Part shown: piece by piece, positions 26,569 through 61,395 of the stretch
How positions within the stretch are numbered: the first letter of the stretch is position 1
How the letters are laid out: every line of letters starts with the position of its first letter
Assembly: GCA_903877385.1 (NCBI GenBank)
Contig: CAIRDP010000030.1
Location: forward strand, 9,974 to 73,973
Source: an uncultured Bacteroidales bacterium
GTDB taxonomy: Bacteria; Bacteroidota; Bacteroidia; Bacteroidales; FEN-979
Length of the DNA stretch: 64,000 nt
Reading direction: 5' to 3'
Position numbers and translations under genes: made by a program
The notes under the pieces: generated by a model
The model's database searches: none
What the model was told of the DNA's origin: nothing
What the model saw: only the letters and a program-made list of their open reading frames with translations

Positions 26569-27249
26569 ATGATGGAAAAGCTGGTACAAAAATTTTATGA
26601 GAAATATGCCTCTGTCCAAACTGAAATTGTACGTGATTTTGTCAATGAAATTGATTGGTCCAACAGGGTCATCGGGATTAAAGGAAGCAGAGGTGTTGGA
26701 AAGACAACCCTGGTTTTACAATACATCAAACAGAACTTTGCTCCCGACAGCAGCGTTCTTTACATTAGCCTGGATAATTTATACTTTTCCGACAACAAGC
26801 TTTACGATCTGGCCGATGTGTTTCATAAAAAAGGGGGTAAGTTACTGGTGATAGACGAAGTACATAAATATGCAAACTGGACAACCGAGCTAAAGAATAT
26901 TTACGATGACTTATCCGGTTTGAAAATAATTTTTTCCGGATCATCTTTATTGCACCTGAGGCAAACTAAAGCTGATTTAAGCCGCAGGGCAGTGATGTAT
27001 GAGATGCCGGGACTATCCTTCAGAGAATATTTGCATTTTCAGACCAATATAAAATTTCCAATTTTCAGCCTGGAAGAGATCCTGAACAATCATATTCAGT
27101 TATCGGTTAGGATCATTAAAAAAATAAAACCGCTTGCATACTTCGGCGATTATTTAAACTATGGATATTACCCGTTTTTCAAAGAAAGTCTGACATCCTT
27201 TCACCAAAAGCTCAGCGAAATATTACTTACAGTGCTTGAAGTTGACATT
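26569..27249 (+). pseudogene. AAA-ATPase (AAA_14 + DUF4143-type) gene, 5' fragment (codons 1-227), disrupted by prophage insertion
   Basis: Walker A GSRGVGKTT and Walker B LLVIDEVHKY. The native reading frame ends at ...LTVLEVDI (codon boundary at 27249). The remaining 15 codons of the track ORF (YNSQNKLYKFSKRSV*) are read from phage-end DNA. Confidence 0.85.
27245..27249. repeat. target-site duplication, left copy (ACATT)
   Basis: ACATT lies directly before the prophage end, and an identical pentamer lies directly after the other end at 61391-61395. The flanking bases differ, so the duplication is at most 5 bp. Confidence 0.8.
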
Positions 27250-27330
27250 TATAATTCGCAAAACAAATTGTATAAATTTTCAAAACGAAGTGTATAAATA
27301 ATTCGCATTGCGAAATTAACCATTATACGC
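27250..27330. promoter_or_regulatory. prophage terminal region (Mu right-end equivalent) with repeated putative transposase-binding sites
   Basis: Direct repeats cgCAAAACAAATTGTATAAA (27257-27276) and ttCAAAACGAAGTGTATAAA (27279-27298) start 22 bp apart. An inverted partial copy (cattatacgc) lies at 27321-27330. Confidence 0.6.
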
Positions 27331-27342
27331 TATATTTGTCAC

Positions 27343-27435
27343 GTCACATCTTCAATACAATCCATTTGGCTTATCTCAACATTGACATAAGCCCGGCAAT
27401 AGGGTGCTTGCACCCTTTGGTATTGGAGATGTGAC
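27343..27435. other. nested inverted-repeat structure (three-way junction) between dam and the prophage end
   Basis: The outer 16-bp stem pairs gtcacatcttcaatac (27343-27358) with gtattggagatgtgac (27420-27435), with one T:G pair. It encloses hairpins ggcttat/ataagcc (27368-27374 / 27387-27393) and agggtg/caccct (27401-27416). Confidence 0.5.
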
Positions 27436-27443
27436 AATTTTCT

Positions 27444-28259
27444 TTATCTGCCGGGCTTACCTTTTTGTATAGGGTAATTGGCTGTCAATACCTCGATTTT
27501 ATTTGATCTGACTGCCTTCTTTGAGGCACATAAAGGCATTTTAAAAGCCAGCTGGGACCAGCCATGCTTCTTGGCATATTGAGTGATAATGTCCTGAGGG
27601 TAATTGCTTAATAAAAACTTTCCTTTGATGTTTGATAGCCTTATCAAGAGCTGCTCAAGGTTGTCCATCGTATAACCCTTGTAATGGCCCAAATTGGTCC
27701 CAGGATAAGGTGGGTCGATATAATGAAAGGTATCCGGTGTATCATATAGCCTGATTACGTCAAGGGCGTCACGGCACTCTATTTGCGTTAATTCAATACG
27801 CTCCTGAAGCTGATCAGTAAACTGCCTTTTTTTATTCATAACTTTCCTTGCAATACTGGATTTGCTTTTATCAAACCCCCAGGATCCTGAGAGCTGACTT
27901 CCGAAGGATTGAGTGGATAATACCCATAAGGCCCATGCCCTGGTTACCGGATCGTGGAGTATTGGCTGCTGATAAATCTCCCATGCCTGCTTATGAGTCT
28001 TACGACTGTGCAATGTGATTTTAACGACTTTTTGAAGGGCTTTAAATTGTGTTTTAAGAACAACGTAAAAGTTGATCAGCTCATCATTCATGTCATTGAT
28101 CACTTCAACCTTTGAAGGGGCCTTTAACCAGTAAATGGCGGCACCTCCACAGAAGGGTTCACAATAAACAGTGTGTTTGGGAATTAAAGGCAGAATATGC
28201 CTCGACATTTGTTGTTTGCCCCCATAGTAAGAAATGGGGGTCTTAATAGTGTCAATCAT
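27444..28259 (-). CDS. dam: DNA adenine methyltransferase (Dam / D12 class N6-MTase)
   Basis: YYGGKQQ...YCEPFCGGAAIY (AdoMet motif I) and IDPPYPGT (catalytic DPPY motif IV). It is the last gene before the prophage end. Confidence 0.88.
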   Translation of the reverse strand: MIDTIKTPISYYGGKQQMSRHILPLIPKHTVYCEPFCGGAAIYWLKAPSKVEVINDMNDELINFYVVLKTQFKALQKVVKITLHSRKTHKQAWEIYQQPILHDPVTRAWALWVLSTQSFGSQLSGSWGFDKSKSSIARKVMNKKRQFTDQLQERIELTQIECRDALDVIRLYDTPDTFHYIDPPYPGTNLGHYKGYTMDNLEQLLIRLSNIKGKFLLSNYPQDIITQYAKKHGWSQLAFKMPLCASKKAVRSNKIEVLTANYPIQKGKPGR

Positions 28260-28322
28260 CGCTTAGGGTTTAAATGTTAGTACTTTGCTTATCCCAACAT
28301 CAACCCTTGAAATGAATAGATT

Positions 28323-31322
28323 TTAAGTCAGTTTTAAAACAGCATAACCATATAATGGTGATGCTGTAGCTACAGTTACCCTTAAATTATCCGATGCAAC
28401 TGTGGCGTTAGAAATAGTGACATTACTGGATTTTTCAACCACAGTGATATCCATGCCCACATATTTGTTAGGAATGGCCACATTATCAATCATTACGCCG
28501 TTATAGTCAAGATAAATATAAACGGCCTTACCGACCTCTATCATGTTGCAGGATAATCGTCCTGTGGGATTGTTCTCAACATCGGAGAAGATTCTGAATG
28601 CCACAGCCTGATAGGTAGTCCCCGCGGCAATATCACCCAGAGTGTCATCAATGCCACAAGGATAGCTCTTTCGTGATGTATAATAATACCAGGCTCTCGA
28701 AACAAGATCTTTTCTTCCGACACCTATACCCTTATCTGTAACGAATCCTGACATAAAAGCGTGTTTCCTTGTGCCATCTCCTAATGCAAGAAACTCAATA
28801 GCCCTGTCCGGTGGCGAGTTTGGATTTTCCCAATAAGCCGAATCAATATTAATGCTTCCAGCAGGGGCAGATGTTAAATCAATAAGTGTTCTGAGATCAT
28901 AAGTTGTACCCGAAACGGTTACAGGTAACGCTTTCGGCATATAAACGAGCATTTTTGTCAATGGAGAAACTGTGTTCATCGGAGCATTTTGAATAAAACC
29001 CATATATCCAATGTCGACTTTTTGCAGGGCCGTCCAGTCATGCAGAACAAGCATGGCTCCGTTATTTTGCATCCTGAAGACAATATTACACTGAACACAA
29101 CCATCTCCTGCATTAATTGCCGGCGAAGGATCAGTACCACGATTTGCAATCAGATAATCAATTGCCGATGCCGGGTTGACAATTTCATAATTCTCCTTAA
29201 TGTCTACATGATCACAGTAGTAAGTCCCATCAGCCGTCTCTTCAGCGATTCCATCCAAGAGCACCTTACAGGTCCTGTTTTTTATTGCAGGCGTTATCTG
29301 GGCTTGTTCCTGGGCACTAAAGGTGATAGTTCCTGTATGGGTTGCACCTGCTGAATGGGTTAAGCTCGATCCTGAAAGCAAGTCAAATGCCCATATATCA
29401 GAAGCTCCAATATTTTCCGACAACACCCATAACATACTTGAACTGACAATTCTAAGGATGTAAAACTTCCTGTTGGCACTATCAGTCCATTCGCTTCCGA
29501 CATCAACCGCTGTTTTCCCATGAGATGATGCTGTTATTAGGATGCCCGAACTGCACCCATGATTACCACCGATGTATGTGCCGTTCATACTTGTGGGAGT
29601 GCCATCATCGGCCCCGGATTGCAAGGTTATTGTCGGAGCACCTATATTATTTGAGCCTTTAATGACAAGGTGAGATGAGAAATTTACGATGTTGTTATTA
29701 AATGGTGTGGAATTAAAGCAGGTGAAATCGGTGCGTAAATCATAAGTGTCATTATATGGAGTAAACACATGGACATATGGAGTAGCGATGATCACAGTGG
29801 TTTTCTTAATGCCGATTTTAGCCTCATTCGCTATTACCATTGCCTGCTGTGCAACGTCGACTGCATCACTTATTGAAGGTGGATATTGCATTACGTTTAA
29901 ACCGTCAGGATGGATGTTTGAACATATGATTTCATCCTCCCACACAAAAGTAAAATTAGCGTAATCCAAATCGTTTCCATACAGTAATGCCACCTGGGGA
30001 TAATTCATGTAGAACCTTGGCGTTGTAGATGTAAACGCTCCATCATAAACAACATTCTCAACCGTGAATGCAACGAAGCTCCAGCCGTCCTGCTTATCAA
30101 GGCAAACAGCTTTAAAATCTCCTGCCATGTAAGAAGCTACATTAAATGTCCCATTCTGCTCATTTCCGATTGCCGCAATTACAGTGTTTATTGCAATTAG
30201 GATTGTGGCATATATACTTCCGTCAAAAAAATAAAACATCATGTTTGGACTACCTGCAAAAACCGTTGCCAGCTGAGTGTCATTAAGCCAGAATCCCCAA
30301 CTCCATTTTGTGGGTTTAGGAGAGGTTGGGAAAACATAACCTACGGTTCCATCCCATTCAACAAATGTACTTCCGGAATTAGAGATGGCCGTTAACCGGT
30401 TCATATATGGAAGTTGTGCTGAACACGGAGAGGTATTAGTTACATGAGTACCGGTTAGATTTTGACCACCTGTTGTCCATGTAAAACTTGGATATAGTGT
30501 TCCATTTCCTTTATTTGCATTTAAAGGAAGCTTTGTTGAAACTATCTTTTTCAGAATTTCATCAAGGGCAATTGCCTCCGCCTTCGCCAAGGCCAGTGTT
30601 TCGGCTTTAATAGTCGGAATGTCCCCTGTTGAAACGGCATCGTCTAATTTTTGGGTAAGTGATTTTTTTAATAAACGTGTATAGGGTACCTGGGTGGATG
30701 AAACGGCCCCTAATTCGAGTTGGAATAAAGTTTTGAAGAGGGAAAAAGATTCCGTAGGATTTGCCATTGAGTTTATACCTATAAAGGCACAGCCAGACGG
30801 AGTAGTAAATGTAATCGTTCTATAATCGCCATCGTACCCTCCCAGATTAGCCATGGAAGAATTATAAAATCTGATATTACCATATGTAGCATCTGTGCCA
30901 AATTTTGTCAGAGTGTATTCTGTATTTGGTAATACGGCTTGGTAACCACTACAATTAAAGACACTTCCAGCCCCTAAATTAAGTGCTCCATTTGAGTTAT
31001 TAAAGTAAGCACCCTCAATACATTCATCCGGATTAAACTTGTTTTTCCCAATCTCAGTAAATGCCGACAGTTGCATGTAATCAACTAATGAGATCCCGGT
31101 CTCATATTTACTCCAAGCGGACCCATTCCAGATTAGAAATGCCACTTGACCTGACACCACCAAACCATTAAAGTGAGTGTATGTTCCTGCCTCACCCGCG
31201 AACCAGTACTCGGGATCATTCGGTGAACCAGGGTTTGTACTGGTTAAAGCGACGCCCTTGAATTGATTGGATTCAAATAAGACCTGGCCGCCGAGGTTTA
31301 TGGTTTTTGATGTGCCTGACAT
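28323..31322 (-). CDS. large tail fibre / receptor-binding protein (999 aa)
   Basis: The call rests on size and position distal to the baseplate genes. The sequence is Gly/Ser/Thr/Asn-rich and beta-rich, and I recognise no enzymatic motif. Confidence 0.5.
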   Translation of the reverse strand: MSGTSKTINLGGQVLFESNQFKGVALTSTNPGSPNDPEYWFAGEAGTYTHFNGLVVSGQVAFLIWNGSAWSKYETGISLVDYMQLSAFTEIGKNKFNPDECIEGAYFNNSNGALNLGAGSVFNCSGYQAVLPNTEYTLTKFGTDATYGNIRFYNSSMANLGGYDGDYRTITFTTPSGCAFIGINSMANPTESFSLFKTLFQLELGAVSSTQVPYTRLLKKSLTQKLDDAVSTGDIPTIKAETLALAKAEAIALDEILKKIVSTKLPLNANKGNGTLYPSFTWTTGGQNLTGTHVTNTSPCSAQLPYMNRLTAISNSGSTFVEWDGTVGYVFPTSPKPTKWSWGFWLNDTQLATVFAGSPNMMFYFFDGSIYATILIAINTVIAAIGNEQNGTFNVASYMAGDFKAVCLDKQDGWSFVAFTVENVVYDGAFTSTTPRFYMNYPQVALLYGNDLDYANFTFVWEDEIICSNIHPDGLNVMQYPPSISDAVDVAQQAMVIANEAKIGIKKTTVIIATPYVHVFTPYNDTYDLRTDFTCFNSTPFNNNIVNFSSHLVIKGSNNIGAPTITLQSGADDGTPTSMNGTYIGGNHGCSSGILITASSHGKTAVDVGSEWTDSANRKFYILRIVSSSMLWVLSENIGASDIWAFDLLSGSSLTHSAGATHTGTITFSAQEQAQITPAIKNRTCKVLLDGIAEETADGTYYCDHVDIKENYEIVNPASAIDYLIANRGTDPSPAINAGDGCVQCNIVFRMQNNGAMLVLHDWTALQKVDIGYMGFIQNAPMNTVSPLTKMLVYMPKALPVTVSGTTYDLRTLIDLTSAPAGSINIDSAYWENPNSPPDRAIEFLALGDGTRKHAFMSGFVTDKGIGVGRKDLVSRAWYYYTSRKSYPCGIDDTLGDIAAGTTYQAVAFRIFSDVENNPTGRLSCNMIEVGKAVYIYLDYNGVMIDNVAIPNKYVGMDITVVEKSSNVTISNATVASDNLRVTVATASPLYGYAVLKLT

Positions 31323-31334: not shown

Positions 31335-31661
31335 TTAGTATAAATAACTGATTCTATCGATGGTTCCGGCTGCAGCTGTTCCTTTGGTTAAGGCAACTCG
31401 TATATAGATGCCTCTTGCAACGCCGGTGAGGTTCCATGAGTGGGATGTCTTTGCCGGATTGACGGTAACCAGGGATTCGGGTACCTGGGTAAAACTCGCA
31501 CCTGGTGAAATGGCCTGCTCGAGGGACAAGGTAACATCCTCCGCTTCAAGATCCGTGTAGTCGACCTGGATCATGGCGTTATTGGAATCGATCTGCTGTG
31601 CATCAAAATTATGATTGCCATCGGCGATCGAATAATCTGGTTTTTGGTTTATGAGTGACAT
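31335..31661 (-). CDS. hypothetical protein, tail-fibre module
   Basis: Compactly spaced ORF between two fibre-module genes; no motif recognised. Confidence 0.5.
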   Translation of the reverse strand: MSLINQKPDYSIADGNHNFDAQQIDSNNAMIQVDYTDLEAEDVTLSLEQAISPGASFTQVPESLVTVNPAKTSHSWNLTGVARGIYIRVALTKGTAAAGTIDRISYLY

Positions 31662-31688
31662 TGGTATATGGTTTAAACGGTTTTTAAA

Positions 31689-32516
31689 TTATGCGTCGCC
31701 TTCGGGAGGAGCTGTACCACCACTTGTGGGCAATCCCCAGTTCACCGGATCCTGGAAGTTGATCAGGTACTGAAATGAGATGTAGTTCGTGGCCGTGATG
31801 GAAGCGCCTGACACATATACATCACCATTCTTCTTAATCTTCAGTACGCCGGGTGAAACGGAATCATTGAAAAAAGGTGCAACCAGGTCACCACTGGGAC
31901 GATGTCCTGAAGGAAGGGTTGTTATCTTGCCTGCAGTAACCGTGGCGTTAAATGCGCCCAGAAGCATATACCATCCCATGGTGTTCTTTTCAAGCTTCAG
32001 GCCATCGAGACCAGTTGCTGCGCCAAATCCAGTCAGATAACTGAGTGTATAAAGATTCAGCAGATTCGAATTAAGGGTGATCTGCGAGAGGATGAGACTC
32101 GTGAGCTTGCCAATCAATGGAATAGAATTAAACGGGATGCTTCCACTGGGTTGGCTATCAGCATAGGTCATTTCGTACCGTCGCAATTGCCAAACATCAT
32201 GCGTACTTGTATCCTTGAAGGTGCGGTTCTCAGAGGTAGTGATATCAGGTACCAGGTAGAGACCATACCCCTCATCGTGGGCCACGAAACTTGAAGCCGG
32301 GACATAGCAGATCTCGTCACCATCAAAGAACCAGCCTTCGGTAACATCTACATTGGTGTTTACAGTCAGTACCATGCCACAGACGATGAATGAGGTTTCC
32401 TCAGGCAACAGACCCGTTAAAATGGCCTTTAGCAATGCTTTTTCCACATTCTGGATCAATTCCCAGTCTGCGGATCTCAGTGGCTGTGCGCCTCCAAGGC
32501 TTAATAATCTATCCAT
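31689..32516 (-). CDS. hypothetical tail-fibre/baseplate-distal protein
   Basis: 275-aa ORF abutting the upstream gene (1-nt gap). Position-based call only. Confidence 0.5.
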   Translation of the reverse strand: MDRLLSLGGAQPLRSADWELIQNVEKALLKAILTGLLPEETSFIVCGMVLTVNTNVDVTEGWFFDGDEICYVPASSFVAHDEGYGLYLVPDITTSENRTFKDTSTHDVWQLRRYEMTYADSQPSGSIPFNSIPLIGKLTSLILSQITLNSNLLNLYTLSYLTGFGAATGLDGLKLEKNTMGWYMLLGAFNATVTAGKITTLPSGHRPSGDLVAPFFNDSVSPGVLKIKKNGDVYVSGASITATNYISFQYLINFQDPVNWGLPTSGGTAPPEGDA

Positions 32517-32517
32517 A

Positions 32518-32976
32518 TTAAATGAGTTGTATGATAAAAACCTTACTAAACAGCTTGAATTTGTTCACATCCGCGGCGATTACATTACAGAAATCAGACA
32601 AAGCGCTCGGTACTTTTACCACGAAATCAACCGTTACCTCATCATTGTTACTGTACACATAATTATCAGGTTCGTACATGAATAAATCAACCTCTCCTGA
32701 GGGTGGAGTTCCATGCCACACCCAGGGACCCAGCTCGTAACCTTCTACGATCCGGATCTCTGTAGTACCCCACCGGTCGTTTAAAAACTTTTCCAGATAA
32801 CACACCTGGGGAGTCATACGTGCCTCGGTAAGCGCACGCTCTCGCAGTTGCATCAAGCGGTTATGAATCATCACCAGGTCGCTCACAAATACCTTTGCCC
32901 AGGCAATAAACCGGGGGGTCCTGCGGCGAAAGGGCAGCAGGATCTGAATGAGCTTATATAGCGAGAAGTTCCACAT
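32518..32976 (-). CDS. hypothetical baseplate-module protein
   Basis: 152-aa ORF whose start codon overlaps the upstream gene's stop codon by one base (32976). Position matches the Mu gp48 slot. Confidence 0.45.
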   Translation of the reverse strand: MWNFSLYKLIQILLPFRRRTPRFIAWAKVFVSDLVMIHNRLMQLRERALTEARMTPQVCYLEKFLNDRWGTTEIRIVEGYELGPWVWHGTPPSGEVDLFMYEPDNYVYSNNDEVTVDFVVKVPSALSDFCNVIAADVNKFKLFSKVFIIQLI

Positions 32977-33869
32977 TATTCAACCGATACTTGTATGTAA
33001 TCCTGATACGTAAAACTGGACGATGCCTGGTCAATCACAAAATGCCCGGACACGGACTCAACGCTCATGTCGACAGTGGCAAAGGTGCCTCCGGCTGCTT
33101 TGTGTTGTGCGGAATTGAGTTTCACATCCTTTACACCTTCCGCCGCCTTGATCAAGTTGACCAGGGTGGAGAGCGTAATGATACCGTCAAACTCTAAACT
33201 ATTCCCGTATGCAGTAATAGCGTCATCGATCGGAAACACACTGGCATCCCTGAGCAAGGAATTATTTCCGTTTAACACCAGGCGATCCCGGATGATCTTG
33301 ATGTCGATCTTTAAAATGTCAGCGGCCTGGGAAACGATTTCAAGGCGAACACCGGCGTCTTTCCACTGAGCCCAGAATTCAGTAAATGCGGCTTTTTCGC
33401 CAATGCTCAAAGGGACCTTCTGTGTACCCGATTCTTTGGCGACCTTCAGAATCACCTTACCGTTCTTTTCTGATGCAGCTGCATACTTGACTACCTTTGC
33501 ATCCTCGTCGATTCGGGCATACTGGTACTGGCCATCCTTCCAGATCATGGCATAACCATACTGGAATTTTTTGCTCTCCTCAGCATACCACCTGCGAGTG
33601 TGTGGTTTTTTGGCGGATAAGATATCGGTGATTTCCTCAGTATGTTTATCGAACAAGGTTTCAACGATCCAGGATCCAGTGGCAAACAGCCACATGAATA
33701 GTCGCCATACAGCCACTTTACTGGATGAGTTGATATCCGATAAAAGAGTATCCCAGGTATCCTGAATGCTGTGTGAGTTATTGGCGTCCACTACATAATC
33801 ATGCAGTTCCTGGAAAGTGGATTTTACCACATTCAGAGAATCAAATATTTCGGAGATCTTACGAGCCAT
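32976..33869 (-). CDS. baseplate wedge protein (J/gp47-like), tentative
   Basis: About 300 aa in the slot after the small wedge protein, as in Mu/P2 baseplate operons. The start is set at ATG 33869 (MARKISEIF), 1 nt after the upstream stop. Confidence 0.4.
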   Translation of the reverse strand: MARKISEIFDSLNVVKSTFQELHDYVVDANNSHSIQDTWDTLLSDINSSSKVAVWRLFMWLFATGSWIVETLFDKHTEEITDILSAKKPHTRRWYAEESKKFQYGYAMIWKDGQYQYARIDEDAKVVKYAAASEKNGKVILKVAKESGTQKVPLSIGEKAAFTEFWAQWKDAGVRLEIVSQAADILKIDIKIIRDRLVLNGNNSLLRDASVFPIDDAITAYGNSLEFDGIITLSTLVNLIKAAEGVKDVKLNSAQHKAAGGTFATVDMSVESVSGHFVIDQASSSFTYQDYIQVSVE

Positions 33870-33870
33870 A

Positions 33871-34446
33871 TTATGTCCTCCAGGTAATTGTGTCCAGCGT
33901 GCCGGTTGCACCACCTGCTGCCTCGAGGCGGACCCTGCAGAAGTTGGTTACCAGGTCAACGAAATTGAACGTATGAGAATCCTCAGAGGGATCCAATTCA
34001 TAGAATGCTCCTGAAATGGGCGAGTAGTTAATTCCATCCAGCGACTGTTCGACATAAACTATGACATCACCGGTCAAGTCGGTATAGTTGAGCTGGAGGC
34101 TTAATTCATCCCCCATGTTGGACAGACGAACCCCGGCAAACTGCTCATTCCCGTCACTGAAGTCGTATGCAATATTTTGCGTCACGTTGATCATATCCGT
34201 TATTGTTAATTCAATGGCTTCTCCCAACCCGGAGACGGGCTTACTGTTATTCCGCGTGTAATAATCAACCACAGAGGCGTTAATGACCGTGTCCGGTACT
34301 AACACCGGCTGGCCAACTGATAAAGCCATGTCGGGGCGGATAAACGCATTTATGCCCATAATTTCGAAGGCCCCGGATGCGTCTCCCATTTCCTGAAGAC
34401 TGATGTCCCAAACGGTCTGGTTTGCGATTGCGGTTACAGTTTTCAT
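33871..34446 (-). CDS. hypothetical baseplate-module protein with an N-terminal LysM-like segment
   Basis: AIANQTVWDISLQEMGDASGAFEIMGINAFIRPDMALSVGQPVLVPD resembles a LysM/tail-X type fold. Its position is in the baseplate operon. Confidence 0.4.
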   Translation of the reverse strand: MKTVTAIANQTVWDISLQEMGDASGAFEIMGINAFIRPDMALSVGQPVLVPDTVINASVVDYYTRNNSKPVSGLGEAIELTITDMINVTQNIAYDFSDGNEQFAGVRLSNMGDELSLQLNYTDLTGDVIVYVEQSLDGINYSPISGAFYELDPSEDSHTFNFVDLVTNFCRVRLEAAGGATGTLDTITWRT

Positions 34447-34730
34447 TTATACTGCGCGTTTATGTTGATCCCGCCTATGGCCGTTACTTTCAGAACGCTC
34501 ATGCCATCGCGGGTGAACTGAGATCTTATCTTTCGTATCATGTCGGTCTTATCTTCATCCAGTAAAAAACCCTCTATGCCTACACCGGTAATGGGCCATT
34601 GCTTGTACTCGCCCTCATTGGCCACAAGGAGATCCACCTGGTGCTGACGGGTGGAATCTCCTATGAGGAAATCTCCATCACTACTGGCCAGATCGTTTGT
34701 CACGATATCGATGAGTATATCAGTTGGCAT
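34443..34730 (-). CDS. small baseplate protein (W/gp25/gp46-slot)
   Basis: 95 aa, overlapping the genes on both sides by 4 nt and 1 nt. Size and position fit the small wedge subunit. Confidence 0.4.
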   Translation of the reverse strand: MPTDILIDIVTNDLASSDGDFLIGDSTRQHQVDLLVANEGEYKQWPITGVGIEGFLLDEDKTDMIRKIRSQFTRDGMSVLKVTAIGGININAQYK

Positions 34731-36258: not shown

Positions 36259-36265
36259 CTTACCT

Positions 36266-49195: not shown

Positions 49196-49305
49196 GCCCC
49201 TTTGAGGGGCTCCATAGCCGACTGGGGCTCATATACCACCGCCATGAGGATGAAGCCACAGGCGTCGCCCTGGGGGCCAAGAGTGAAAAAATACCGCCTT
49301 TCTCA

Positions 49306-51878: not shown

Positions 51879-51917
51879 GGCCGTGTGGTTTTAATTGGGA
51901 ATTAAAAATAGGTAAAA

Positions 51918-52148: not shown

Positions 52149-52150
52149 AG

Positions 52151-52962: not shown

Positions 52963-53407
52963 GAGGTTGGGATAGAGTTTCTTTCGCTACGTGCTCGAAC
53001 TGTTTCACAAGACGTTGCAGTTCTTTATAGGAATAATCGTTGAGGGGTTTATGCAAATACGAATAATGCTTCATCCAACTATTCAATCGCTCAAAATCAA
53101 CTTCCGATTTGCTCTTGTCTTTGTTCCAGGTGGTCCATCCCATCGTATAACAAAGCGAAAGGATCCTGCGGCGCATCTTCTGTCCCTCAAAAATTGTTTG
53201 AGATTTAGTGTGGGATCCCACGGCGCCGGGTCCGAGTTGCTCCTCCAGGTGTTTTATCAGCGCCTGAGCCTCAAGGTCGGTAAGATCCGCAGAGTTTTCA
53301 GTCCTTCCATTGGCAAAACTAAATACCAGGTCGTGCCGGTATTTCTCCGTGCCGGTTTCCCGGAACAGAGAGTATAATCTGCGATGCCGCTGAAGGGAAT
53401 GATTCAT
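52952..53407 (-). CDS. GemA/Mu gp16-like regulatory protein (DUF1018-like), tentative
   Basis: RRLYSLFRETG...DLTDLEAQALIKHLEEQ...RRRILSLCYTMGW...YKELQRLVKQFE resembles the gp16/GemA layout as I remember it. Confidence 0.35.
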   Translation of the reverse strand: MNHSLQRHRRLYSLFRETGTEKYRHDLVFSFANGRTENSADLTDLEAQALIKHLEEQLGPGAVGSHTKSQTIFEGQKMRRRILSLCYTMGWTTWNKDKSKSEVDFERLNSWMKHYSYLHKPLNDYSYKELQRLVKQFEHVAKETLSQPHES

Positions 53408-53408
53408 A

Positions 53409-53630
53409 TTAATCTACGTATCCAATTACTTTCAATAAATCTGAACTCTTGAGAACCTTGATCTGGTTCCCTTTTTCATCCAATTTAATGGTTGAATCGT
53501 CATTTACCAATCTGACCAGGCATTTGTTCAAACTCTTAAATTCGACCGTCTGTTCATCGCGATGAATGATGCCCCTTTGTTTTTCACCGGTTGTGGAAAT
53601 GTATTCTACTAAATAGCCAATCTTACCCAT
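53409..53630 (-). CDS. hypothetical small protein
   Basis: 73-aa ORF, 1 nt from the downstream gene. Confidence 0.45.
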   Translation of the reverse strand: MGKIGYLVEYISTTGEKQRGIIHRDEQTVEFKSLNKCLVRLVNDDSTIKLDEKGNQIKVLKSSDLLKVIGYVD

Positions 53631-53648
53631 GGTAAATGTTTATTAGGG

Positions 53649-53792
53649 TTAATACATTGTTTCTTCTTTGTCCTGATCATCAAAAATGCCATTGATCCAT
53701 TTCCCTATCGCCATTAACAGCAGACCAAAGCAGAAGAATATTCCGATTACCGAACAACAGGTGATGAACATGGCTAATGGGTTTGAGATCAT
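53649..53792 (-). CDS. small single-TM protein (47 aa), tentative
   Basis: Below the track cutoff. My translation is MISNPLAMFITCCSVIGIFFCFGLLLMAIGKWINGIFDDQDKEETMY. It fills the only gap in this operon. Confidence 0.3.
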   Translation of the reverse strand: MISNPLAMFITCCSVIGIFFCFGLLLMAIGKWINGIFDDQDKEETMY

Positions 53793-53801
53793 GATATTTG
53801 T

Positions 53802-54323
53802 TTAAACATTTTGAGTAAGACTTCCGATCCGGGTGGCCAGGAGTTCATAGGTCCCGAGAAAGGACCGTTTAGCAAACTTATGATCCAGTCCTGTGTTGCG
53901 ATCGTTGATCACCATGTTGACCCACTCCCAACGCAGAGCAAAATTATCCGCTTCCTTAACTGTATCGAGAAACGGGTATTGAATCTTGAATACGGAAGCA
54001 ATGACCCGGTGAAGCTTATCCTCAATCTCACAAAAATTAGTCAGGCGATGTTTAATCGGACGAGGCATATCGATCAGGTAAGCTTCAGCGGCATCGTGCA
54101 ACAATCCGCAGAGTTTGTCTTGATCGCTCTGCATAAGGTTGGATACGAACATTGAATGTTCGGCAACGCTGTAGAACTGGTTGATGTGTCCGGAGAACCG
54201 GCATTGTTTTGCAAGTGCATGTGCAATGTCTATGATATTGATCAGCGAAGGATCCGGATCCAGGGGATCGATAAATTTGCCGGTGAAGGTGCGGATCTTG
54301 TTTTCTTCAAAAAGTCTTTCCAT
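53802..54323 (-). CDS. HD-domain phosphohydrolase
   Basis: HALAKQCRFSGH...YSVAEHS...GLLHDAAEAYLIDMPRP gives the H...HD...D metal-binding pattern. Confidence 0.75.
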   Translation of the reverse strand: MERLFEENKIRTFTGKFIDPLDPDPSLINIIDIAHALAKQCRFSGHINQFYSVAEHSMFVSNLMQSDQDKLCGLLHDAAEAYLIDMPRPIKHRLTNFCEIEDKLHRVIASVFKIQYPFLDTVKEADNFALRWEWVNMVINDRNTGLDHKFAKRSFLGTYELLATRIGSLTQNV

Positions 54324-54325
54324 GC

Positions 54326-54979
54326 TTATGAAATTAGGGATCGTTTAATGTTGGGTCTCTGCTGAGGGGGGGGGCAGGTCTTTTTGATCTTTTCCAGCTT
54401 TTCCTTCAGCTGCTCGTCATGCGCCTTAACTGTACCGATCTCCTTCTGCTCAGGAATTGAAAACTCACGGGGCTCGGGAATTGTAAATGCTATCAGGTGT
54501 GCCTGTCGACATTTAAGGGTACAGAAATTCGCATTCCATCCATGTTTACCCTTGGTCGGATTACCACAGTGCATACATTTACGGCCGGTGTCGGGTTTTG
54601 TCTTTTTCTTGGCATCATACTTGGAAGCATTCTTACACTTTTTCGAGCAGTACTTCACATGGCGACTTACGGTAAGAAATTCCTCTTTACACTGCCAGCA
54701 GATCATTTTACGCTTCTCTCCCCGAGTGTATGAGTCCGTGAATTTTACATGATCCGTAGTGGTAATGTGAGTTATCACCGGGAAGGATTGTTCCTCAGGC
54801 ATGGACGATTGTCCACTTGGTTGAGGACTTGCTGTTTCCTCCACGATTGGAGTGAGTTCACGAACCTTCAGTTCGCCATTAAAGAGTGCGGCATTAACAC
54901 TCATCTCATCATTTTTAATCCACTCGAGGATTTTCATAATAGATGCCGCATCAGCGGAGATATGAAGTTGAATGTCCAT
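54326..54979 (-). CDS. hypothetical protein with two C-terminal zinc-ribbon motifs
   Basis: CWQCKEEF...CSKKCKNA and CMHCGNPT...CTLKCRQAH. Confidence 0.55.
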   Translation of the reverse strand: MDIQLHISADAASIMKILEWIKNDEMSVNAALFNGELKVRELTPIVEETASPQPSGQSSMPEEQSFPVITHITTTDHVKFTDSYTRGEKRKMICWQCKEEFLTVSRHVKYCSKKCKNASKYDAKKKTKPDTGRKCMHCGNPTKGKHGWNANFCTLKCRQAHLIAFTIPEPREFSIPEQKEIGTVKAHDEQLKEKLEKIKKTCPPPQQRPNIKRSLIS

Positions 54980-54982
54980 CCT

Positions 54983-55597
54983 CTAAAGAGCTGAAAAGTT
55001 CAATTCAATGAGTTTGTAGCTTCCGTCCTCATCTCGTTTCCATAGCCTGAAATAGGTTTTTGATCCCGGATGGCGTAATCCATCGCTTAGGACATTTAAC
55101 GCCTCCTGGAACAGCGGGTGGCTGATTTTCGTGCGGTATTTCATCAGGGCAAATACTTTCTTTGCGTCGATCTTGCCACGGGTGGTTGAAAACGCATCGA
55201 TCACCAGGTCCTTGACGAACTCCATTTTTGAATCGAGGTTCTCGCTCAGGAAAGAATCAAGTTTTTCCTTGGATGCCTGGATGGCCAGGTCGTCGAATGT
55301 GATGCGATCCGAGATAGAAACCTCGATCTTGATGGAGCGGTCGAAGTTGAACCAGGTGAAGTTTCCTTTGCCATCCGGTTTTGCTTTGTATTCCTCCATG
55401 GCCTTACGGTATACATCCTCGCAAAGCTTTTCCATGCGCTTTTTAAAGCTCATCAATTTTGAGTTGATCAGCTCAGCCTCTTTGAGCAGTGATGCGCTAC
55501 TGCGTTCTTTCAGGCGCGTGCCCAGGGAAATGTATTCAACCGGCACGTCCTGTCCGGTTTCGTCTTTCCATACTTTGTTTTCTAATTTCTGAATCAT
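54983..55597 (-). CDS. DUF3164-like Mu-type early protein, tentative
   Basis: 204 aa, three genes downstream of the MuB-like gene in the early operon. Helical charged sequence; family assignment is from memory only. Confidence 0.3.
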   Translation of the reverse strand: MIQKLENKVWKDETGQDVPVEYISLGTRLKERSSASLLKEAELINSKLMSFKKRMEKLCEDVYRKAMEEYKAKPDGKGNFTWFNFDRSIKIEVSISDRITFDDLAIQASKEKLDSFLSENLDSKMEFVKDLVIDAFSTTRGKIDAKKVFALMKYRTKISHPLFQEALNVLSDGLRHPGSKTYFRLWKRDEDGSYKLIELNFSAL

Positions 55598-55614
55598 ACT
55601 ATACTTGTTTAATG

Positions 55615-56031
55615 TTAATGACTTGTGGTTTCACTGAGTTTCTTGAGGATCTGCTGAGAAGTTTTATTATACGAGTTGTGGATCTCTTCATAAATGACGT
55701 TGTCTGGGAATGCGTCGATTGAGATGTGCATCGTGGCATAGATATGCCTGAGTTCTTTGCGACACTTAGGCTCATTCTTAAAGCTGCAGTAATGATAATA
55801 GAACTCCTGGTCCACCAGGTTCCATTGCCCTCGCCACCAGGCCCAGAATAGCGGCTCCTTAAGGAATTGCTGCAGCCATTCATCGGACATGCCGGTAGTT
55901 TTCATATAATTGATTGCTGTTTTGAAAATCATCTGTGACAGATGGTTCTCGGTCATACCGGTCATCAACAGGATGTTATTTTTAAGCATTTCCTGCCTGG
56001 CCTTTAACCGTGCTTTTGCGCTGTCTTTCAT
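55615..56031 (-). CDS. hypothetical protein (early region)
   Basis: 138-aa ORF with a Trp-rich segment (PLFWAWWRGQWNLVDQEF). Confidence 0.5.
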   Translation of the reverse strand: MKDSAKARLKARQEMLKNNILLMTGMTENHLSQMIFKTAINYMKTTGMSDEWLQQFLKEPLFWAWWRGQWNLVDQEFYYHYCSFKNEPKCRKELRHIYATMHISIDAFPDNVIYEEIHNSYNKTSQQILKKLSETTSH

Positions 56032-56037
56032 AAGGCA

Positions 56038-56667
56038 TTAAATTTTACTGACATGAATGTAAGTTTCAGCACCTTCCTCCCATATCGTGTAAGGCTCTCC
56101 ACCTCCATATCGAGAAACCGGAAAGGCTTTGTACCCTTCAATCCAAACCTTGACAAAGGCGTCAAAACGGATCGAGCGGGCTACGCGGCCTGAAGGTTCC
56201 TTGCCATCGGCATGGCTGATCAGGATGAAGAGTTTATTGCGAAATGTGTCACGGAGGGTTTTGTACTGTGCATAATTAAGTCCTGTATATTGTATTGAAT
56301 CGATGATGATCACCTGAGGAGAGCGTGGCCGACTCAGACGAACGATCAGTTCATCGATCGGTTCTTTGTCCAGCAGCATGAAGCGACGCGACACTTCCTG
56401 CATATTGCAATCCATCAGTGCGTTTTTCATAGACAGTGACACGCCTTCCTCCAGGGAGTCGTAGGCCACTTTTTTTCCGAGCGAAGCGAGGTATTTTGCC
56501 ACCTGGAGAGCGAAGCGGGTTTTCCCATTGCCCGATTTTCCCCAGATGAGCCAGGTGCCGGTGACCTCAGGGCGACCGATCGCCTGGAGCCAAGCGCCGG
56601 TAAATTCAAGACAGTTCAAGTTTGTCTTGAATAACCGGTGCATTGTGACTGCTCTTTTTTCCTTCAT
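56038..56667 (-). CDS. P-loop NTPase (RecA/KaiC-like minimal ATPase)
   Basis: Walker A GKSGNGKTRFA and Walker B QVIIIDSIQY; 209 aa. Its start codon lies immediately adjacent to the stop codon of the MuB-like gene. Confidence 0.65.
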   Translation of the reverse strand: MKEKRAVTMHRLFKTNLNCLEFTGAWLQAIGRPEVTGTWLIWGKSGNGKTRFALQVAKYLASLGKKVAYDSLEEGVSLSMKNALMDCNMQEVSRRFMLLDKEPIDELIVRLSRPRSPQVIIIDSIQYTGLNYAQYKTLRDTFRNKLFILISHADGKEPSGRVARSIRFDAFVKVWIEGYKAFPVSRYGGGEPYTIWEEGAETYIHVSKI

Positions 56668-56668
56668 G

Positions 56669-57538
56669 TTAAGCGATCTTACGAAGTTCGTCCTGGATCC
56701 TGCGAAGGGAGTAATCCGTCTGTCGCATCAGCTTCTGGATGTCTATTTCTGCCGGTGCATTGGCCTTGATGATCATTGCGGCATGTACCTGGCGGAATTT
56801 GCGCAGATCCTCACCTGAGTCGGGCGTGGCTTTCTGATATCGGGATCCGTAGCGGCTAAAAAGTTCGGTGTAACCAACCTTCTTGTGATCGATCGAGCGG
56901 CGGATCTTCTCCTTCAGGCCATCGGCTCCCATCATGTACCATCCGGTGCAACGTTCCGTAGCATTCCAGAGCGCTTTTAACTCAAGGAAGGCAGGATAAT
57001 CAAGGTCACCGGCTTCATCCAGGATAATTAATGGAGAGGGCAGGGAACGCAGATAAAACACCAAATCTGCGTATACATCGCTGTACTTTCCCGTGTGCCC
57101 TACTCCAAACTCTTTGGCAATAAATCTCACCAACTTCTGCCTGGTTTTGACCTGGCTGCAGTCAACGTAAATGGCGTTTTTGTTGACTTTAACAAAATGC
57201 TTTGCAGTAAACGTTTTGCCGATATCGGCCATATCACACAGCAGTCGGCTGGCAGCGTTTTGCTGGCAGAACTGAAGCTGCGTGGAGATGAAGTTGAATA
57301 CCGGAGTGCTTGCAGTTTGCCATACGGGAGTGTTCCCGATGGCAATCTCCAGGGTACGAGCCAGGGAGATCCAGTTCTGATCCGACAGGACCCGCTCGGT
57401 CTCCCCGTTCTTAATGCGGGAGTACTGGGCGTTATTGATCCCGATTGATACTGCAAACTTCGCATCGCTTCCGGCGAAGTTTTCGCGCCTGAGGGCCAAG
57501 GCCGTCAAAATACGCTGTTTTAATTCCGTTGTCATCAT
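56669..57538 (-). CDS. MuB-like transposition ATPase (N-terminal HTH + AAA)
   Basis: HTH AKFAVSIGINNAQYSRIKNGE, Walker A-like MADIGKTFTAKHF and Walker B LIILDEAGDLD. It sits immediately downstream of the transposase. Confidence 0.75.
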   Translation of the reverse strand: MMTTELKQRILTALALRRENFAGSDAKFAVSIGINNAQYSRIKNGETERVLSDQNWISLARTLEIAIGNTPVWQTASTPVFNFISTQLQFCQQNAASRLLCDMADIGKTFTAKHFVKVNKNAIYVDCSQVKTRQKLVRFIAKEFGVGHTGKYSDVYADLVFYLRSLPSPLIILDEAGDLDYPAFLELKALWNATERCTGWYMMGADGLKEKIRRSIDHKKVGYTELFSRYGSRYQKATPDSGEDLRKFRQVHAAMIIKANAPAEIDIQKLMRQTDYSLRRIQDELRKIA

Positions 57539-57573: not shown

Positions 57574-59622
57574 TTAAATGCTTTCTAAAGCGCGTTCAGA
57601 TTCCCATCCGTTGTTGTACTGAGCGATCATATCCTCGATATTCTCTTCCGTGGGGACACTGGCTGTTGAAGGGACGGTTTCAACAATCGCAGGTAACTCC
57701 TCCAGGTCACTGGTCTTAATGATCTCCAGCTTACGTGTAACCTTTTCAGCAAGGCCATCCTTCTCAACCTTGAAAAAATGAGCCTGGCGCTTGGCCTGGT
57801 CCGTGCGGATCTGCTCGTCGCGATCCGTGCGCTCAATCTTAGCTTCATTGTACTCTTCGATCTTGGTGGCTCGGGTGATGAAGGTGTCATCCTGGTACAA
57901 ATACACTTCCGGGATCCCGCCGTCATGTTCCGGGACATAATATGCCTGAACGGTATAGTTATTGGGCTTTAATCGTATGATCGCGCTCTGATTGTCAATA
58001 GCATATTTACTGTACATCACCTGGGCAAAGTCATTGTTGCGGATGGAGGTCTTGGTTTGGATTCCCAGGTACCTGAACAGTTTATGTTTTTGCGGACGAC
58101 CCAGATCCGGGTTTTGATTCTCAAGAAGGACCTGCCAGCGGGTTTTCCCAGGGAAAAGTTTTTGATTCGGATGTAATTCACTATTGAAACGCTGGATACT
58201 CTGGCGGTCCTCTTCGATCAATTGTTCAACGGGGATCCTCGGCTGCTTGTAATCCTCGTCCTTGTTTTCGCTCTTAGTTTTATAGGCTCCTTTCCCGTTC
58301 CAACGTCCAATGCCGACCTGGTTTTTCTTTTCGTCACCGTACTTTTTACTCCTGATCTTATGCTCTGCACGCTTTGACCTTGAGAGACCAGGAGCGCAGA
58401 AGGTGACGTATGAGAACATAGCGTTCAATTCATGCTCTATATCCTTCATCAGATGGTTCTCAACTTCAACCTCACCAGGCCACATTAGGCAATTTGTATT
58501 CAGGTTACGGTACATTTCCCGGAAACATTCCCACACTAAATTCAAATCCGGCCCACCGGTGGTATAAACACAGGACAATATTGAATCACTCAGTACATCA
58601 AAGGCCAGGTAAGCATTTAACCACTTGCCGTCACTTGTTTTCCTACTCAGCGTGCGGTCGTCCATGGAGATCTTGCTCAGGGAGTACTGGGGAGCTTTAC
58701 GGTGGTTATAGGGAGTATTCTTGGTGATGTGATCAATGCGATTATTGCGCATCCGGTCAATAATGATGGCATTGGCAGGATTATTGATGATGTTCCATAC
58801 GGTTGACTTGCTGATCACGATGTAAGTGCCACGTTTATTGTCGAAGAAATCTTCACGGTTAAACATCGAACCGGTCTCCCGATCAACGATTGAAGTGTGG
58901 CCATAGATAAACTGCAGGTAGGTATCATACACCCAGGCTCCAAAGGGCAGATTATCCTGGCAGTATATGGATATAATCAGCCGCTCGGCTGCATCGTTCA
59001 TCTTACGGGCATTGCAGTTGCCAATTCCCTTATGGATCAGGTGCAGATACCCATGCTCGCCGTAATTGCGGTACTTTTCCTTCAGGCGCAGCGCATTGGA
59101 TGGCAGGGTGTGCTGATATTTATTCTTATCCAGGTTATTGACCGCTTCGCTGACCGCTTGCCAGATGCCGGTAGTTTTACCACCGAGGCCGCGGCGCCGT
59201 GCAGACTTTTCACCTACAAAGTGCCCTACTGCATTAAGGATGCTGGCGTTTGCATTGTATTCAACCTGGCGATCGGGTTTAATTGAGGTCCCATCATCAA
59301 AAAGGTATTCTGAAAAGAAAGTGGACGCTTTGAAATCAGGCTGGATTAGCTCAATGAGCTTGTTACGTTTGGATGCCTGGTGGAGATCTCCGTACTTATC
59401 CTGCAGCCTCTGCTTAATATCACTGCGTAGAAGATCATAGTTTAACAGTGCAGGGCATCCAGGACCGCCTCCTTTGCGCACGCGCACCTGGGGAAACCGG
59501 TGTAAGTACATATGTAAGGCATCTTCACTCATGACAGGTCTTTCTTTAAGGCTGTCTGACTTGGGATTCCCATCCGTTAAGTCAGGCTTAGAAATACAGA
59601 ATATGTTGTTAAAATATTCCAT
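57574..59622 (-). CDS. Mu-type DDE transposase (MuA-like)
   Basis: 682 aa, next to the MuB-like ATPase and near the element end. The core carries acidic residues (ISMDDRT, AFDVLSD) and the third-motif-like PGLSRSKRAEHKIR (cf. P..KG.IER of the rve superfamily). Confidence 0.75.
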   Translation of the reverse strand: MEYFNNIFCISKPDLTDGNPKSDSLKERPVMSEDALHMYLHRFPQVRVRKGGGPGCPALLNYDLLRSDIKQRLQDKYGDLHQASKRNKLIELIQPDFKASTFFSEYLFDDGTSIKPDRQVEYNANASILNAVGHFVGEKSARRRGLGGKTTGIWQAVSEAVNNLDKNKYQHTLPSNALRLKEKYRNYGEHGYLHLIHKGIGNCNARKMNDAAERLIISIYCQDNLPFGAWVYDTYLQFIYGHTSIVDRETGSMFNREDFFDNKRGTYIVISKSTVWNIINNPANAIIIDRMRNNRIDHITKNTPYNHRKAPQYSLSKISMDDRTLSRKTSDGKWLNAYLAFDVLSDSILSCVYTTGGPDLNLVWECFREMYRNLNTNCLMWPGEVEVENHLMKDIEHELNAMFSYVTFCAPGLSRSKRAEHKIRSKKYGDEKKNQVGIGRWNGKGAYKTKSENKDEDYKQPRIPVEQLIEEDRQSIQRFNSELHPNQKLFPGKTRWQVLLENQNPDLGRPQKHKLFRYLGIQTKTSIRNNDFAQVMYSKYAIDNQSAIIRLKPNNYTVQAYYVPEHDGGIPEVYLYQDDTFITRATKIEEYNEAKIERTDRDEQIRTDQAKRQAHFFKVEKDGLAEKVTRKLEIIKTSDLEELPAIVETVPSTASVPTEENIEDMIAQYNNGWESERALESI

Positions 59623-60347: not shown

Positions 60348-60375
60348 GTAAAATGTAATATTTTTTCAACTATTA

Positions 60376-60777
60376 ATGGAATTTTCTGCCAACATAAAGT
60401 ATCTCAGGAAGTTAAAGAAGCTCACACAGGACGATTTAGCTAAGGAATTGGGACTTACTAACACCGCAATTTCGAATTGGGAGCAAGGTATTTCCACTCC
60501 AGATGTAACCGTATCCTTGAAATTGTCCAATATATTTGGAGTTTCCCTGAATGATCTATTGATTAATGACATTAGGAATGGCAGATCCCTGGAGGTGATA
60601 GAAGACAAATCAGCATATCGTGCTACCCCGAAATGTGATTTGTGCACACAAAAGGACGAGACAATTGAAGTCTTGAAACTATTAACTAAAACTCAAGCTA
60701 AACAAATAGAGCTATTGTCCTCCCGCAATGATGAACACGAAGCGATTCATAACGGGCAAAAAAAGAAAGCTGGTTAG
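60376..60777 (+). CDS. XRE-family HTH repressor (Mu c-repressor slot)
   Basis: IKYLRKLKKLTQDDLAKELGLTNTAISNWEQGISTPDVTVSLKLSNIFGVSLNDLL is a canonical HTH_3 domain. It is transcribed away from the early operon, toward the element end. Confidence 0.85.
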   Translation: MEFSANIKYLRKLKKLTQDDLAKELGLTNTAISNWEQGISTPDVTVSLKLSNIFGVSLNDLLINDIRNGRSLEVIEDKSAYRATPKCDLCTQKDETIEVLKLLTKTQAKQIELLSSRNDEHEAIHNGQKKKAG

Positions 60778-61021
60778 TTTGGATGAGGGCAATAAAATCC
60801 CTTGAGATAATAATTGTATTATCTCCACACGCATTTTTAATAGATTTTTCGGATATTTATCTGTTAACTTGCTATATTTCTGCCCTTTATTAAACTGTTT
60901 ATATTGTTTCTATTATATATTGCCTGTATAGTTACCCCCTTGTTTATAGTCTTTTTTGTGGGTTTTCGTCTTTTTTTATGATAGTTAGACTGTTTTTCAA
61001 GTGTTTTTTTTTCGTCGAGAT

Positions 61022-61057
61022 GTAACTCCTCTTGTAACTCCTCTCGTAACTCCTTTG
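61022..61057. repeat. 3 x 12-bp tandem repeat near the repressor-side end
   Basis: The three units are GTAACTCCTCTT, GTAACTCCTCTC and GTAACTCCTTTG. Confidence 0.8.
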
Positions 61058-61289
61058 TATTTTTACAGCATATTATGGCAAGAATCACGTTTATATTACA
61101 ATGTCAAATTGGCCCCGATTACTTGGGGCTGTTATAATCAATAGACTATACCTGAAAGACGCTTTAATAGTGATTTAATGACGTTTTAACGGCATTGTAA
61201 GTAGTAATGTAATAGTTGTATTAAAGTACGGTTCAAGTCACGATCACTAAACTAAAGGTAAATGAAAGGAAATGAAACAATTCGTATTG

Positions 61290-61390
61290 AACGGGTATAC
61301 AGGCCAAAATATTATACACTCCGCATCACTGTAAGTAAAACCGACAAATTTTGATTGATTATCTTTTATACAATTCATTTTGTGCCCCTT
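61290..61390. promoter_or_regulatory. prophage terminal region (Mu left-end equivalent) with putative transposase-binding sites
   Basis: The reverse complement reads aaggggCACAAAATGAATTGTATAAAag (61365-61385), with a second site gatgcgGAGTGTATAAt (61311-61330). Both share the core seen twice at the other end. Confidence 0.6.
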
Positions 61391-61395
61391 ACATT
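61391..61395. repeat. target-site duplication, right copy (ACATT)
   Basis: Identical to 27245-27249 and immediately outside the prophage end. Confidence 0.8.

Follow-up and report, generated by a model that had tools for sequence, protein, structure and literature searches.

The 64,000-nucleotide stretch of an uncultured Bacteroidales genome analysed here (contig CAIRDP010000030.1, positions 9,974 to 73,973; hereafter the window) carries a Mu-like prophage of 34,142 bp at positions 27250-61391, most of whose genes lie on the minus strand, with the repressor and transposase genes towards the end at 61391 and a DNA methylase gene towards the end at 27250. We interpret this element, with a probability of about 85%, as an apparently intact temperate transposable myovirus that integrated by DDE transposition and is a member of the Mu-like phages of Bacteroidota. 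The group to which it belongs comprises hankyphage and the Porphyromonas gingivalis phages (the candidate family 'Alisviridae') together with the Winoviridae, an ICTV family that includes fF4 and Peternella. A preliminary description of the window, made from its letters only, had proposed an apparently intact Mu-like prophage inserted by DDE transposition, and this was borne out by the predicted fold of the transposase, by the phage modules and by the unrelated insertion sites of related phages. The same description placed transposable phages mainly in Proteobacteria and a few Firmicutes, a view that is outdated given hankyphage, fF4, Peternella and the P. gingivalis phages; the window phage is a new lineage of a known kind and not the first transposable phage of its phylum. 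With both junctions present and uninterrupted homologues of the target gene at hand, it provides a clean sequence-level case of transposition-type lysogeny in an environmental Bacteroidales-like genome.

Forty-eight open reading frames (ORFs) of the element were scanned against PHROG and Pfam. A transposase of 682 amino acids (aa) with a predicted MuA/TnsB fold (57574-59622, minus strand; phrog_310) is followed immediately downstream by the gene for a MuB-like AAA+ target activator (56669-57538, minus strand), which matches Pfam AAA_22 and phrog_296 (E = 2e-32) and is 23% identical to MuB over 154 aa by BLASTP (E = 8e-07). The MuA/MuB-like pair that had been suggested from the sequence is thereby supported by the fold and by the adjoining ATPase. 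The proposed Mu-type head genes were also recovered, with Pfam matches to Portal_Mu (E = 2.4e-66), Phage_Mu_F (5.9e-15) and Phage_Mu_Gp36 (2.3e-10); the G-like gene (Phage_tail_S, 1.4e-4) was matched weakly, and it and the Mu-like protease (Mu-like_Pro, 2e-4) fell below the Pfam cut-off. None of the 48 ORFs matched an integrase or another recombinase family in either collection, in agreement with the earlier view of the element as free of integrase. Every module is represented by long, uninterrupted ORFs, and both termini and their binding-site-like repeats are likewise intact.

Interruption of a host ATPase gene and insertion at unrelated sites

The prophage lies within a host gene for an AAA_14/DUF4143 ATPase. 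The 5' part of this gene (26569-27249, plus strand) comprises codons 1-227 and is cut off after ...LEVDI (gac att), where the ORF starting at 26569 passes into unrelated sequence; the 3' part (61396-61911, plus strand; 171 codons plus stop) resumes with att cct caa, encoding IPQF.... When the insert is deleted, the 681 and 516 nucleotides (nt) fuse in frame to encode a protein of 398 aa that matches Pfam AAA_14 (E = 1.9e-30) and, weakly, DUF4143. The split gene and its in-frame joining had been proposed from the window alone, as had the pentamer ACATT, which is indeed found at 27245-27249 and again at 61391-61395 with differing adjoining bases. The phage insertion inactivated the ATPase gene.

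With the joined protein as query, a scan of one genome per species retrieved 413 relatives, of which the best eight, from metagenome-assembled genomes (MAGs) of Bacteroidales, Prolixibacteraceae and Tangfeifania, are uninterrupted across residues 1-398 at 80-90% aa identity. The uninterrupted homologues have the junction in single copy, and three of them (L002, L006 and L007) read exactly GTTGACATT|CCTCAA; with the insert removed, the joined junction of the window, that is, the form of an empty allele, is GTTGACATTCCTCAA. The expected continuity across the junction was therefore found, although the window and these genes share only the ATPase gene and about 60 nt upstream of it, with different flanking genes. 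Because synteny is limited to the gene itself, we describe these genes as uninterrupted homologues and do not claim the same chromosomal locus in an empty state. An independent JGI assembly (L096) has the same junctions at 99.99% identity over 20,972 bp, which rules out misassembly.

The ATPase family itself (L001-L080) has hundreds of homologues across Bacteroidota, including two paralogues in one MAG (L001 and L018), and seems from these sequences to sit in variable contexts. Directly upstream of the interrupted gene (20892-26330) is a gene for an unusually long protein of 1812 aa, in which the L096 gene call identifies both ACR_tran (resistance-nodulation-division transporter) and OEP (outer-membrane factor) domains.

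Junctions of related phages were collected from IMG/VR, JGI, ENA and Logan contigs, giving 12 on the repressor side and eight on the methylase side, and the flanks of all of them differ. Phages L081 and L088 have identical ends in different flanks; so do L195 and L199, which come from one sample (Ga0247841), and L186 represents a third site for the same end lineage. The insertion represented by L088, L198 and L092 is at the 3' end of an S41 peptidase gene, with a gene for a protein carrying a type IX secretion system tail on the opposite side, and that in L089 is upstream of a MiaB-like gene. The near-random insertion into genes assumed in the preliminary description is consistent with these differing flanks, and its counter-scenario, in which the same block always occupies one site bounded by longer att-like repeats, was not found, since the relatives are at unrelated sites. 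Metagenome or virome contigs L183, L110, L108 and L125 end 1-8 nt outside the phage terminus, and L199 ends 96 nt inside it; variable host flanks, whether from many insertion sites or from packaged host DNA, would break assembly in this way.

Several candidates were set aside in compiling these junctions. L100 has A rather than T before its end and lacks the conserved downstream GCCG...TGCGG block, and L098 has a 'phage' side without protein similarity to these phages. Human-gut contigs L184, L187, L189-L191, L193 and L194 represent a single unrelated locus with a chance 24-mer match, and L188 and L197 are chance matches without the tandem repeat. Searching IMG/VR with a degenerate repressor-end pattern returned the known ends and chance matches, and nothing further.

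A transposase family outside Pfam

The 682-aa transposase matches the PHROG 310 'transposase' profile with an E value of 6e-19, and no Pfam match was obtained even at E <= 1. MuA, used as a control, was matched in Pfam by DDE_2 (2e-136) and by HTH_Tnp_Mu, neither of which matches the window protein. Neither phmmer with the transposase nor the family profile gave a relevant match to PDB sequences, and hhalign of the family against a single MuA sequence gave no signal. Because these sequence searches were negative, the connection with MuA and TnsB relies on three things, the predicted fold, PHROG 310 and a bridge through the transposase of a P. gingivalis phage.

A confident AlphaFold model built from 38 homologues (pLDDT 82.7) contains an RNase H-type core with the order b1-b2-b3-a-b4-a-b5-a at residues 317-434 and a beta domain at 521-587. 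The best Foldseek matches were TnsB of ShCAST and Tn7 (7svw, 8rdu and 8ea3) and the MuA transpososome (4fcy), with E values of about 1e-13 and a probability of 1.0, followed by IstA and retroviral integrases. The bridge is provided by the transposase of P. gingivalis phage007a, to which the family aligned in hhalign with 99.8% probability (E = 4e-28). In this alignment, by both hhalign and MAFFT, the Asp of G-D-G-T corresponds to D321, the Asp of T-D-N-Q-G-G to E388 and the Glu of K-T-I-E-Q to E420, so that ...E-V-E-N-H... in the window protein stands opposite ...V-T-D-N-Q-G... in the P. gingivalis phage. E388 is at the end of b4 in the model and E420 at the start of the next helix. Residues D321, D322, E388 and E420 do not vary among 121 homologues, and the same four are invariant in 104 transposase sequences of the family (103 of them representing 50%-identity clusters, and the window protein) reaching down to E values of about 1e-77. 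From the alignment and the model we infer that the catalytic triad is D321-E388-E420, or D-E-E, with Glu rather than Asp at the second position. A literature search returned no paper that uses the term 'DEE motif' for transposases.

The family is large, with 1,528 clusters at 50% identity (E <= 1e-3) and 531 loci in IMG/VR. At least 120 homologues are listed in a database of 5.8 billion proteins; none of those listed has a Pfam domain on record, and those that carry a name are all called 'hypothetical protein', so prophage finders and annotators will miss the transposase gene. We regard this large, Pfam-invisible family with its invariant D-E-E signature as the most interesting outcome of the analysis. 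If the D-E-E triad is catalytic, it would be a natural variant worth testing in enzymes of the MuA/TnsB type, with relevance to the engineering of CRISPR-associated transposons (CASTs).

Phage termini and the length of the target-site duplication

The methylase-side terminus, TATAATTCGCAAAAC... (27250-27298, plus strand), contains two tandem 22-nt repeats (27253-27274 and 27275-27296), each of which includes the motif AAKTGTATAAA, a putative transposase-binding site. The repressor-side terminus, which reads inward as TAAGGGGCACAAAATGAATTGTATAAAAG... (61311-61391, minus strand), has binding-site-like repeats at 61365-61375 and, 54 nt further in and with one mismatch, at 61311-61321. Exact matches to AAKTGTATAAW occur three times in the 64-kb window (27266, 27288 and 61365), all of them at the ends of the element and facing inward. 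The asymmetric layout of repeats at the two ends recalls attR and attL of Mu. The element begins TATAATTCGC... and ends ...GTGCCCCTTA, so that its termini are TA...TA and not TG...CA.

The junction sequence can be read in two ways, either as a 5-bp duplication ACATT flanking an element at 27250-61390, or as a 4-bp duplication CATT (27246-27249 and 61392-61395) with the A at 61391 being the phage's own; the longer repeat begins one base before the first CATT, at 27245. We consider it very probable from the comparison of termini that the duplication is 4 bp and that A61391 is the terminal base of the phage. The 5-bp duplication claimed in the preliminary description thus holds up as a five-base repeat, whereas its fifth base is most likely phage DNA. 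If the extra base is counted as phage, the two ends are in register (TAAGGGGCACAAAATGAATTGTATAAA versus TATAATTCGCAAAACAAATTGTATAAA) and both transferred strands end TA-3'. The ends of four related phages, namely P. gingivalis phage007a, fF4, Peternella and the hankyphage jmh43, have been curated or defined by experiment; all four have TA at both ends, and their termini are recognizably homologous to those of the window phage. At the repressor end the window phage reads TAAGGGGCACAAAATG, the P. gingivalis phage TATAGGGCACAAAACG, hankyphage TAAGGGGGGAGAAACG and Peternella TACAGGGGATAAAACA; at the other end the window phage reads TATAATTCGCAAAACA, the P. gingivalis phage TATAATCGGCAAAACG, fF4 TATAATCAGCAAAACC and Peternella TATAATCGTGAAATCG. 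The window phage conforms to the pattern of the group, with TA(A/T/C)(A/G)GGG... on the repressor side and TATAAT/TAAAT... on the opposite side, and transposable phages of P. gingivalis are reported to have bounding repeats of 4 bp (PMC10367356).

Were the same transposable prophage instead flanked by a true 5-bp duplication, its ends would be AAGGGG.../...ATTATA, and the T beside the repressor-side end of the relatives would reflect a target preference. A duplication of 5 bp is the norm for Mu and Tn7, and five identical bases are present in both of the complete junction pairs that could be assembled, ACATT in the window and AATAT in L088 with L198/L092 (AATA if read as 4 bp), because the base after the 4-bp repeat is T in both. 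No pair separating the two lengths was found; in a 36,392-bp contig (L182/L183) the flank at one end is only 1-2 nt. For a 4-bp duplication, the five identical bases need either two one-base coincidences or a pyrimidine preference, and the flanks of 18 related insertions, read with 4 bp, do follow R|NNNN|Y, with a purine before in 8/10 and a pyrimidine after in 7/8 junctions, although this preference was recognized post hoc in a small sample. The longer duplication is nonetheless quite unlikely. On the repressor side, the junctions of relatives read N|TA in 12/12 cases (12/13 if the excluded L100 is counted as real), as against T in only 5/8 at the matching fifth flank position on the methylase side, where L195 has GATG|CATTG and L199 has GATA|ACCGG. 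Without the T, moreover, the binding sites lie at distances from their cleavage points that differ by one base, and the transferred strands end in T at one end and A at the other, in disagreement with the TA shared by both ends of the four defined relatives and with the published 4-bp repeats. A five-base junction repeat in such phages should not be taken as a Mu-style 5-bp duplication.

The reading of the element as an apparently intact transposable myovirus also has to be weighed against several observations that count against it, namely the lack of synteny between the window and the uninterrupted ATPase homologues, the negative sequence searches with the transposase, the Glu at its second catalytic position and the fit of both complete junction pairs to 5 bp. 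It is unlikely, though a little less so than the longer duplication, that the prophage arrived by transposition and is now grounded, unable to move or to form infectious particles. In favour of this, two independent assemblies show the insertion as fixed, and hankyphage forms defective particles in the laboratory (PMC12135933); the intact modules, termini and repeats, on the other hand, together with the occurrence of close relatives at multiple sites and on contigs ending at phage termini, favour an intact phage. Site-specific integration by a tyrosine or serine recombinase, or an assembly chimera, can be practically dismissed, as nothing was found in its favour. The flanking repeat is only 4-5 bp, the relatives are at unrelated sites, none of the 48 scanned ORFs matches an integrase or recombinase family, and no transfer RNA (tRNA) gene is found at the junctions, the sole one in the window, for tRNA-Arg, being about 8 kb away; the junctions are reproduced in the independent assembly, and the GC content is alike inside and outside the element.

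In the proposed mechanism of the transposable phage, the 682-aa transposase would bind the AAKTGTATAAA repeats at both TA-terminated ends and, with the adjacent MuB-like ATPase, would join the 3' ends to phosphates 4 bp apart on the two target strands. The helix-turn-helix (HTH) repressor would silence the early operon during lysogeny; after induction the genome would multiply by replicative transposition and be packaged, host DNA included, by the terminase and portal of Mu type. Packaging as in Mu would be expected to leave a short piece of host DNA at the repressor end and one of variable length at the other, the lengths in hankyphage being about 30 bp and 1-2.3 kb respectively. That the window phage is active, transposes replicatively and packages headfuls of DNA is predicted from the analysis of its genome. 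More tentatively, and at what we judge to be slightly worse than even odds, the Pfam-invisible branch of MuA/TnsB enzymes with its D-E-E triad, TA...TA ends and 4-bp stagger may represent a mechanistically distinct lineage of Bacteroidota transposable phages, and not simply Mu in a different host. Further prophages of this kind could be sought with a simple search for the conserved termini TA-R-GGGCAC... and TATAAT...GCAAAAC.

Two further features of related insertions were noted. The duplicated bases are AT-rich, and in a more distant relative (L089, 8918-8955; L111, 1-45) the stretch from the phage end to the repressor gene contains GGGGGGACAAAT three times in tandem; these copies may be operator or binding sites, and the window has nothing like them.

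Gene content and relationship to known transposable phages

Several transposable phages of Bacteroidota have been described. Hankyphage of Bacteroides has a MuA-like/MuB-like pair, and experiments have demonstrated that it transposes replicatively and packages host DNA (PMC12135933). Flavobacterium has the Mu-like myovirus fF4, with fF4-like prophages found across Bacteroidetes, in which the layout includes a transposase, one or two ATPases, DUF3164, a Mu-type portal, a terminase, a Clp protease and a terminal methylase (PMC7761591). Winogradskyella phage Peternella has Mu-like ends and yields hybrid phage/host reads, and the core proteins of Winoviridae include Clp protease, neck, capsid, sheath, protein D and portal, among others (PMC8776804). 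P. gingivalis also carries transposable phages (PMC10367356). A megablast search of the element against the GenBank phage collection gave no nucleotide match, and the GenBank relatives of its large terminase include those of many Mu-like phages, hankyphage and Peternella among them; its identity to the enzymes of hankyphage, Peternella and fF4 is 33-34%. The window phage thus extends the hankyphage/Winoviridae group to a lineage without nucleotide similarity to the GenBank phages searched.

The gene map begins, at the repressor side, with an HTH_3 repressor gene (60376-60777, plus strand) that is divergent from the minus-strand early operon. A 93-aa minus-strand ORF (60366-60647), wholly inside the repressor gene on the opposite strand, is probably spurious because it is nested in a well-supported gene. 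The transposase and MuB-like genes are followed by early and middle genes (51126-56667, minus strand), among them a second ATPase (56038-56667), DUF3164 (54983-55597) and a deoxynucleoside monophosphate phosphatase (53802-54323). No PHROG or Pfam match to GemA, Mor or C was obtained among the early and middle ORFs, a search that may miss small, fast-evolving proteins; GemA was likewise not found in fF4 (PMC7761591).

Next is an inverted head block on the plus strand (45178-51061), containing a small terminase-like gene, the large terminase (45749-47260), Mu gp36 (47530-48015), the Mu-type portal (47870-49195), Mu F (49306-50064) and a G-like/neck gene (50061-50564). The listed portal ORF begins within the gp36 gene, and the portals of relatives are of about 390 aa, so its true start is probably further downstream than 47870. 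The remaining modules return to the minus strand and comprise a Mu I-like protease/scaffold (44195-45229) and the major head protein (43164-44189), a holin (GTA_holin_3TM) with a GH108 endolysin (41777-42768), a tail sheath (DUF2586; 40168-41364) and tail tube-like protein (39261-39674), the tail tape measure protein (36820-38778), baseplate and tail genes (31335-36820) including DUF6046 (36266-36820) and the baseplate hub (35287-36258), and a tail-fibre-like protein of 999 aa (28323-31322). The last gene encodes a D12-class N6-adenine DNA methyltransferase (Dam methylase; 27444-28259, minus strand), in the same position as mom in Mu and as the terminal methylases of fF4, Peternella and hankyphage.

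Hankyphage (p00, jmh43_hp) and the P. gingivalis phages resemble the window phage in their Bacteroidota hosts, in insertion that is not site-specific and in gene order, with a divergent repressor, then transposase, MuB-like ATPase and second ATPase, an inverted terminase-portal block, and protease, capsid, lysis and tail genes. Their termini are homologous to those of the window phage, with TAAGGGG.../TATAGGGCAC... on the repressor side and TATAAT/TAAAT on the opposite side, and a 4-bp bounding repeat is likewise known from the P. gingivalis phages (PMC10367356). The resemblance is less complete in other respects. The P. gingivalis phage record lists no sheath, whereas the window phage has a contractile-tail module, and hankyphage has a diversity-generating retroelement, which the window phage does not. 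BLAST similarity between the hankyphage and P. gingivalis transposases and that of the window is confined to residues 1-219, at about 27%, and their second catalytic residue is Asp, whereas the window protein has Glu and no sub-threshold rve match.

Phages fF4 and Peternella are likewise Mu-like Bacteroidota myoviruses with an inverted head block, DUF3164, a terminal DNA methylase and TA...TA termini with TATAAT at the methylase end. In tblastn comparisons of fF4 with the window, identities were 34% for the large terminase, 28% for the portal, 25% for the sheath, 26% for the hub, 27% for the neck and 32% for a baseplate protein; the protease matched over 39 aa only, and the major capsid was not detected. 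The fF4 transposase has no BLASTP similarity to that of the window, and the two phages have no nucleotide similarity. Membership of the window phage in Winoviridae is not established, because similarity in transposase, capsid and nucleotide sequence was undetected. The fF4 paper reports no junctions or duplications (PMC7761591), both of which are seen directly in the window.

Escherichia phage Mu, with the B3/D3112-like 'saltoviruses', shares a c-type repressor, the A and B genes, a far-end DNA-modification gene, the portal, F, gp36, G-like and I-like protease genes, near-random insertion into genes and asymmetric end binding sites. It differs in its TG...CA termini and 5-bp duplication, as opposed to TA...TA and most likely 4 bp in the window phage, whose head block is inverted relative to that of Mu and in which homologues of Mor, C and GemA were not detected. 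TnsB of Tn7 and CASTs gives the best structural matches to the predicted transposase and has an AAA+ partner, but it has no phage context, Tn7 makes 5-bp duplications with TG...CA ends, and sequence identity is 12-14%.

Two minor observations concern the methylase-side end. In L182 (15200-20676), a relative whose hub protein is 84% identical to that of the window phage, a gene for a 1392-aa fibre is followed near this end by a reverse transcriptase (RVT_1), an arrangement that looks like a diversity-generating retroelement of the hankyphage type. In the window, the Rfam search found nothing in the element, including no match for a branched hairpin of about 95 nt (27343-27435, minus strand) between the methylase stop codon and the phage end. 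This hairpin has a folding energy of -42.5 kcal/mol (z-score -4.7 against shuffled sequences), is kept in L096 and in a relative with a transposase about 70% identical (L092, about 19330-19420), and may be a terminator or a small RNA.

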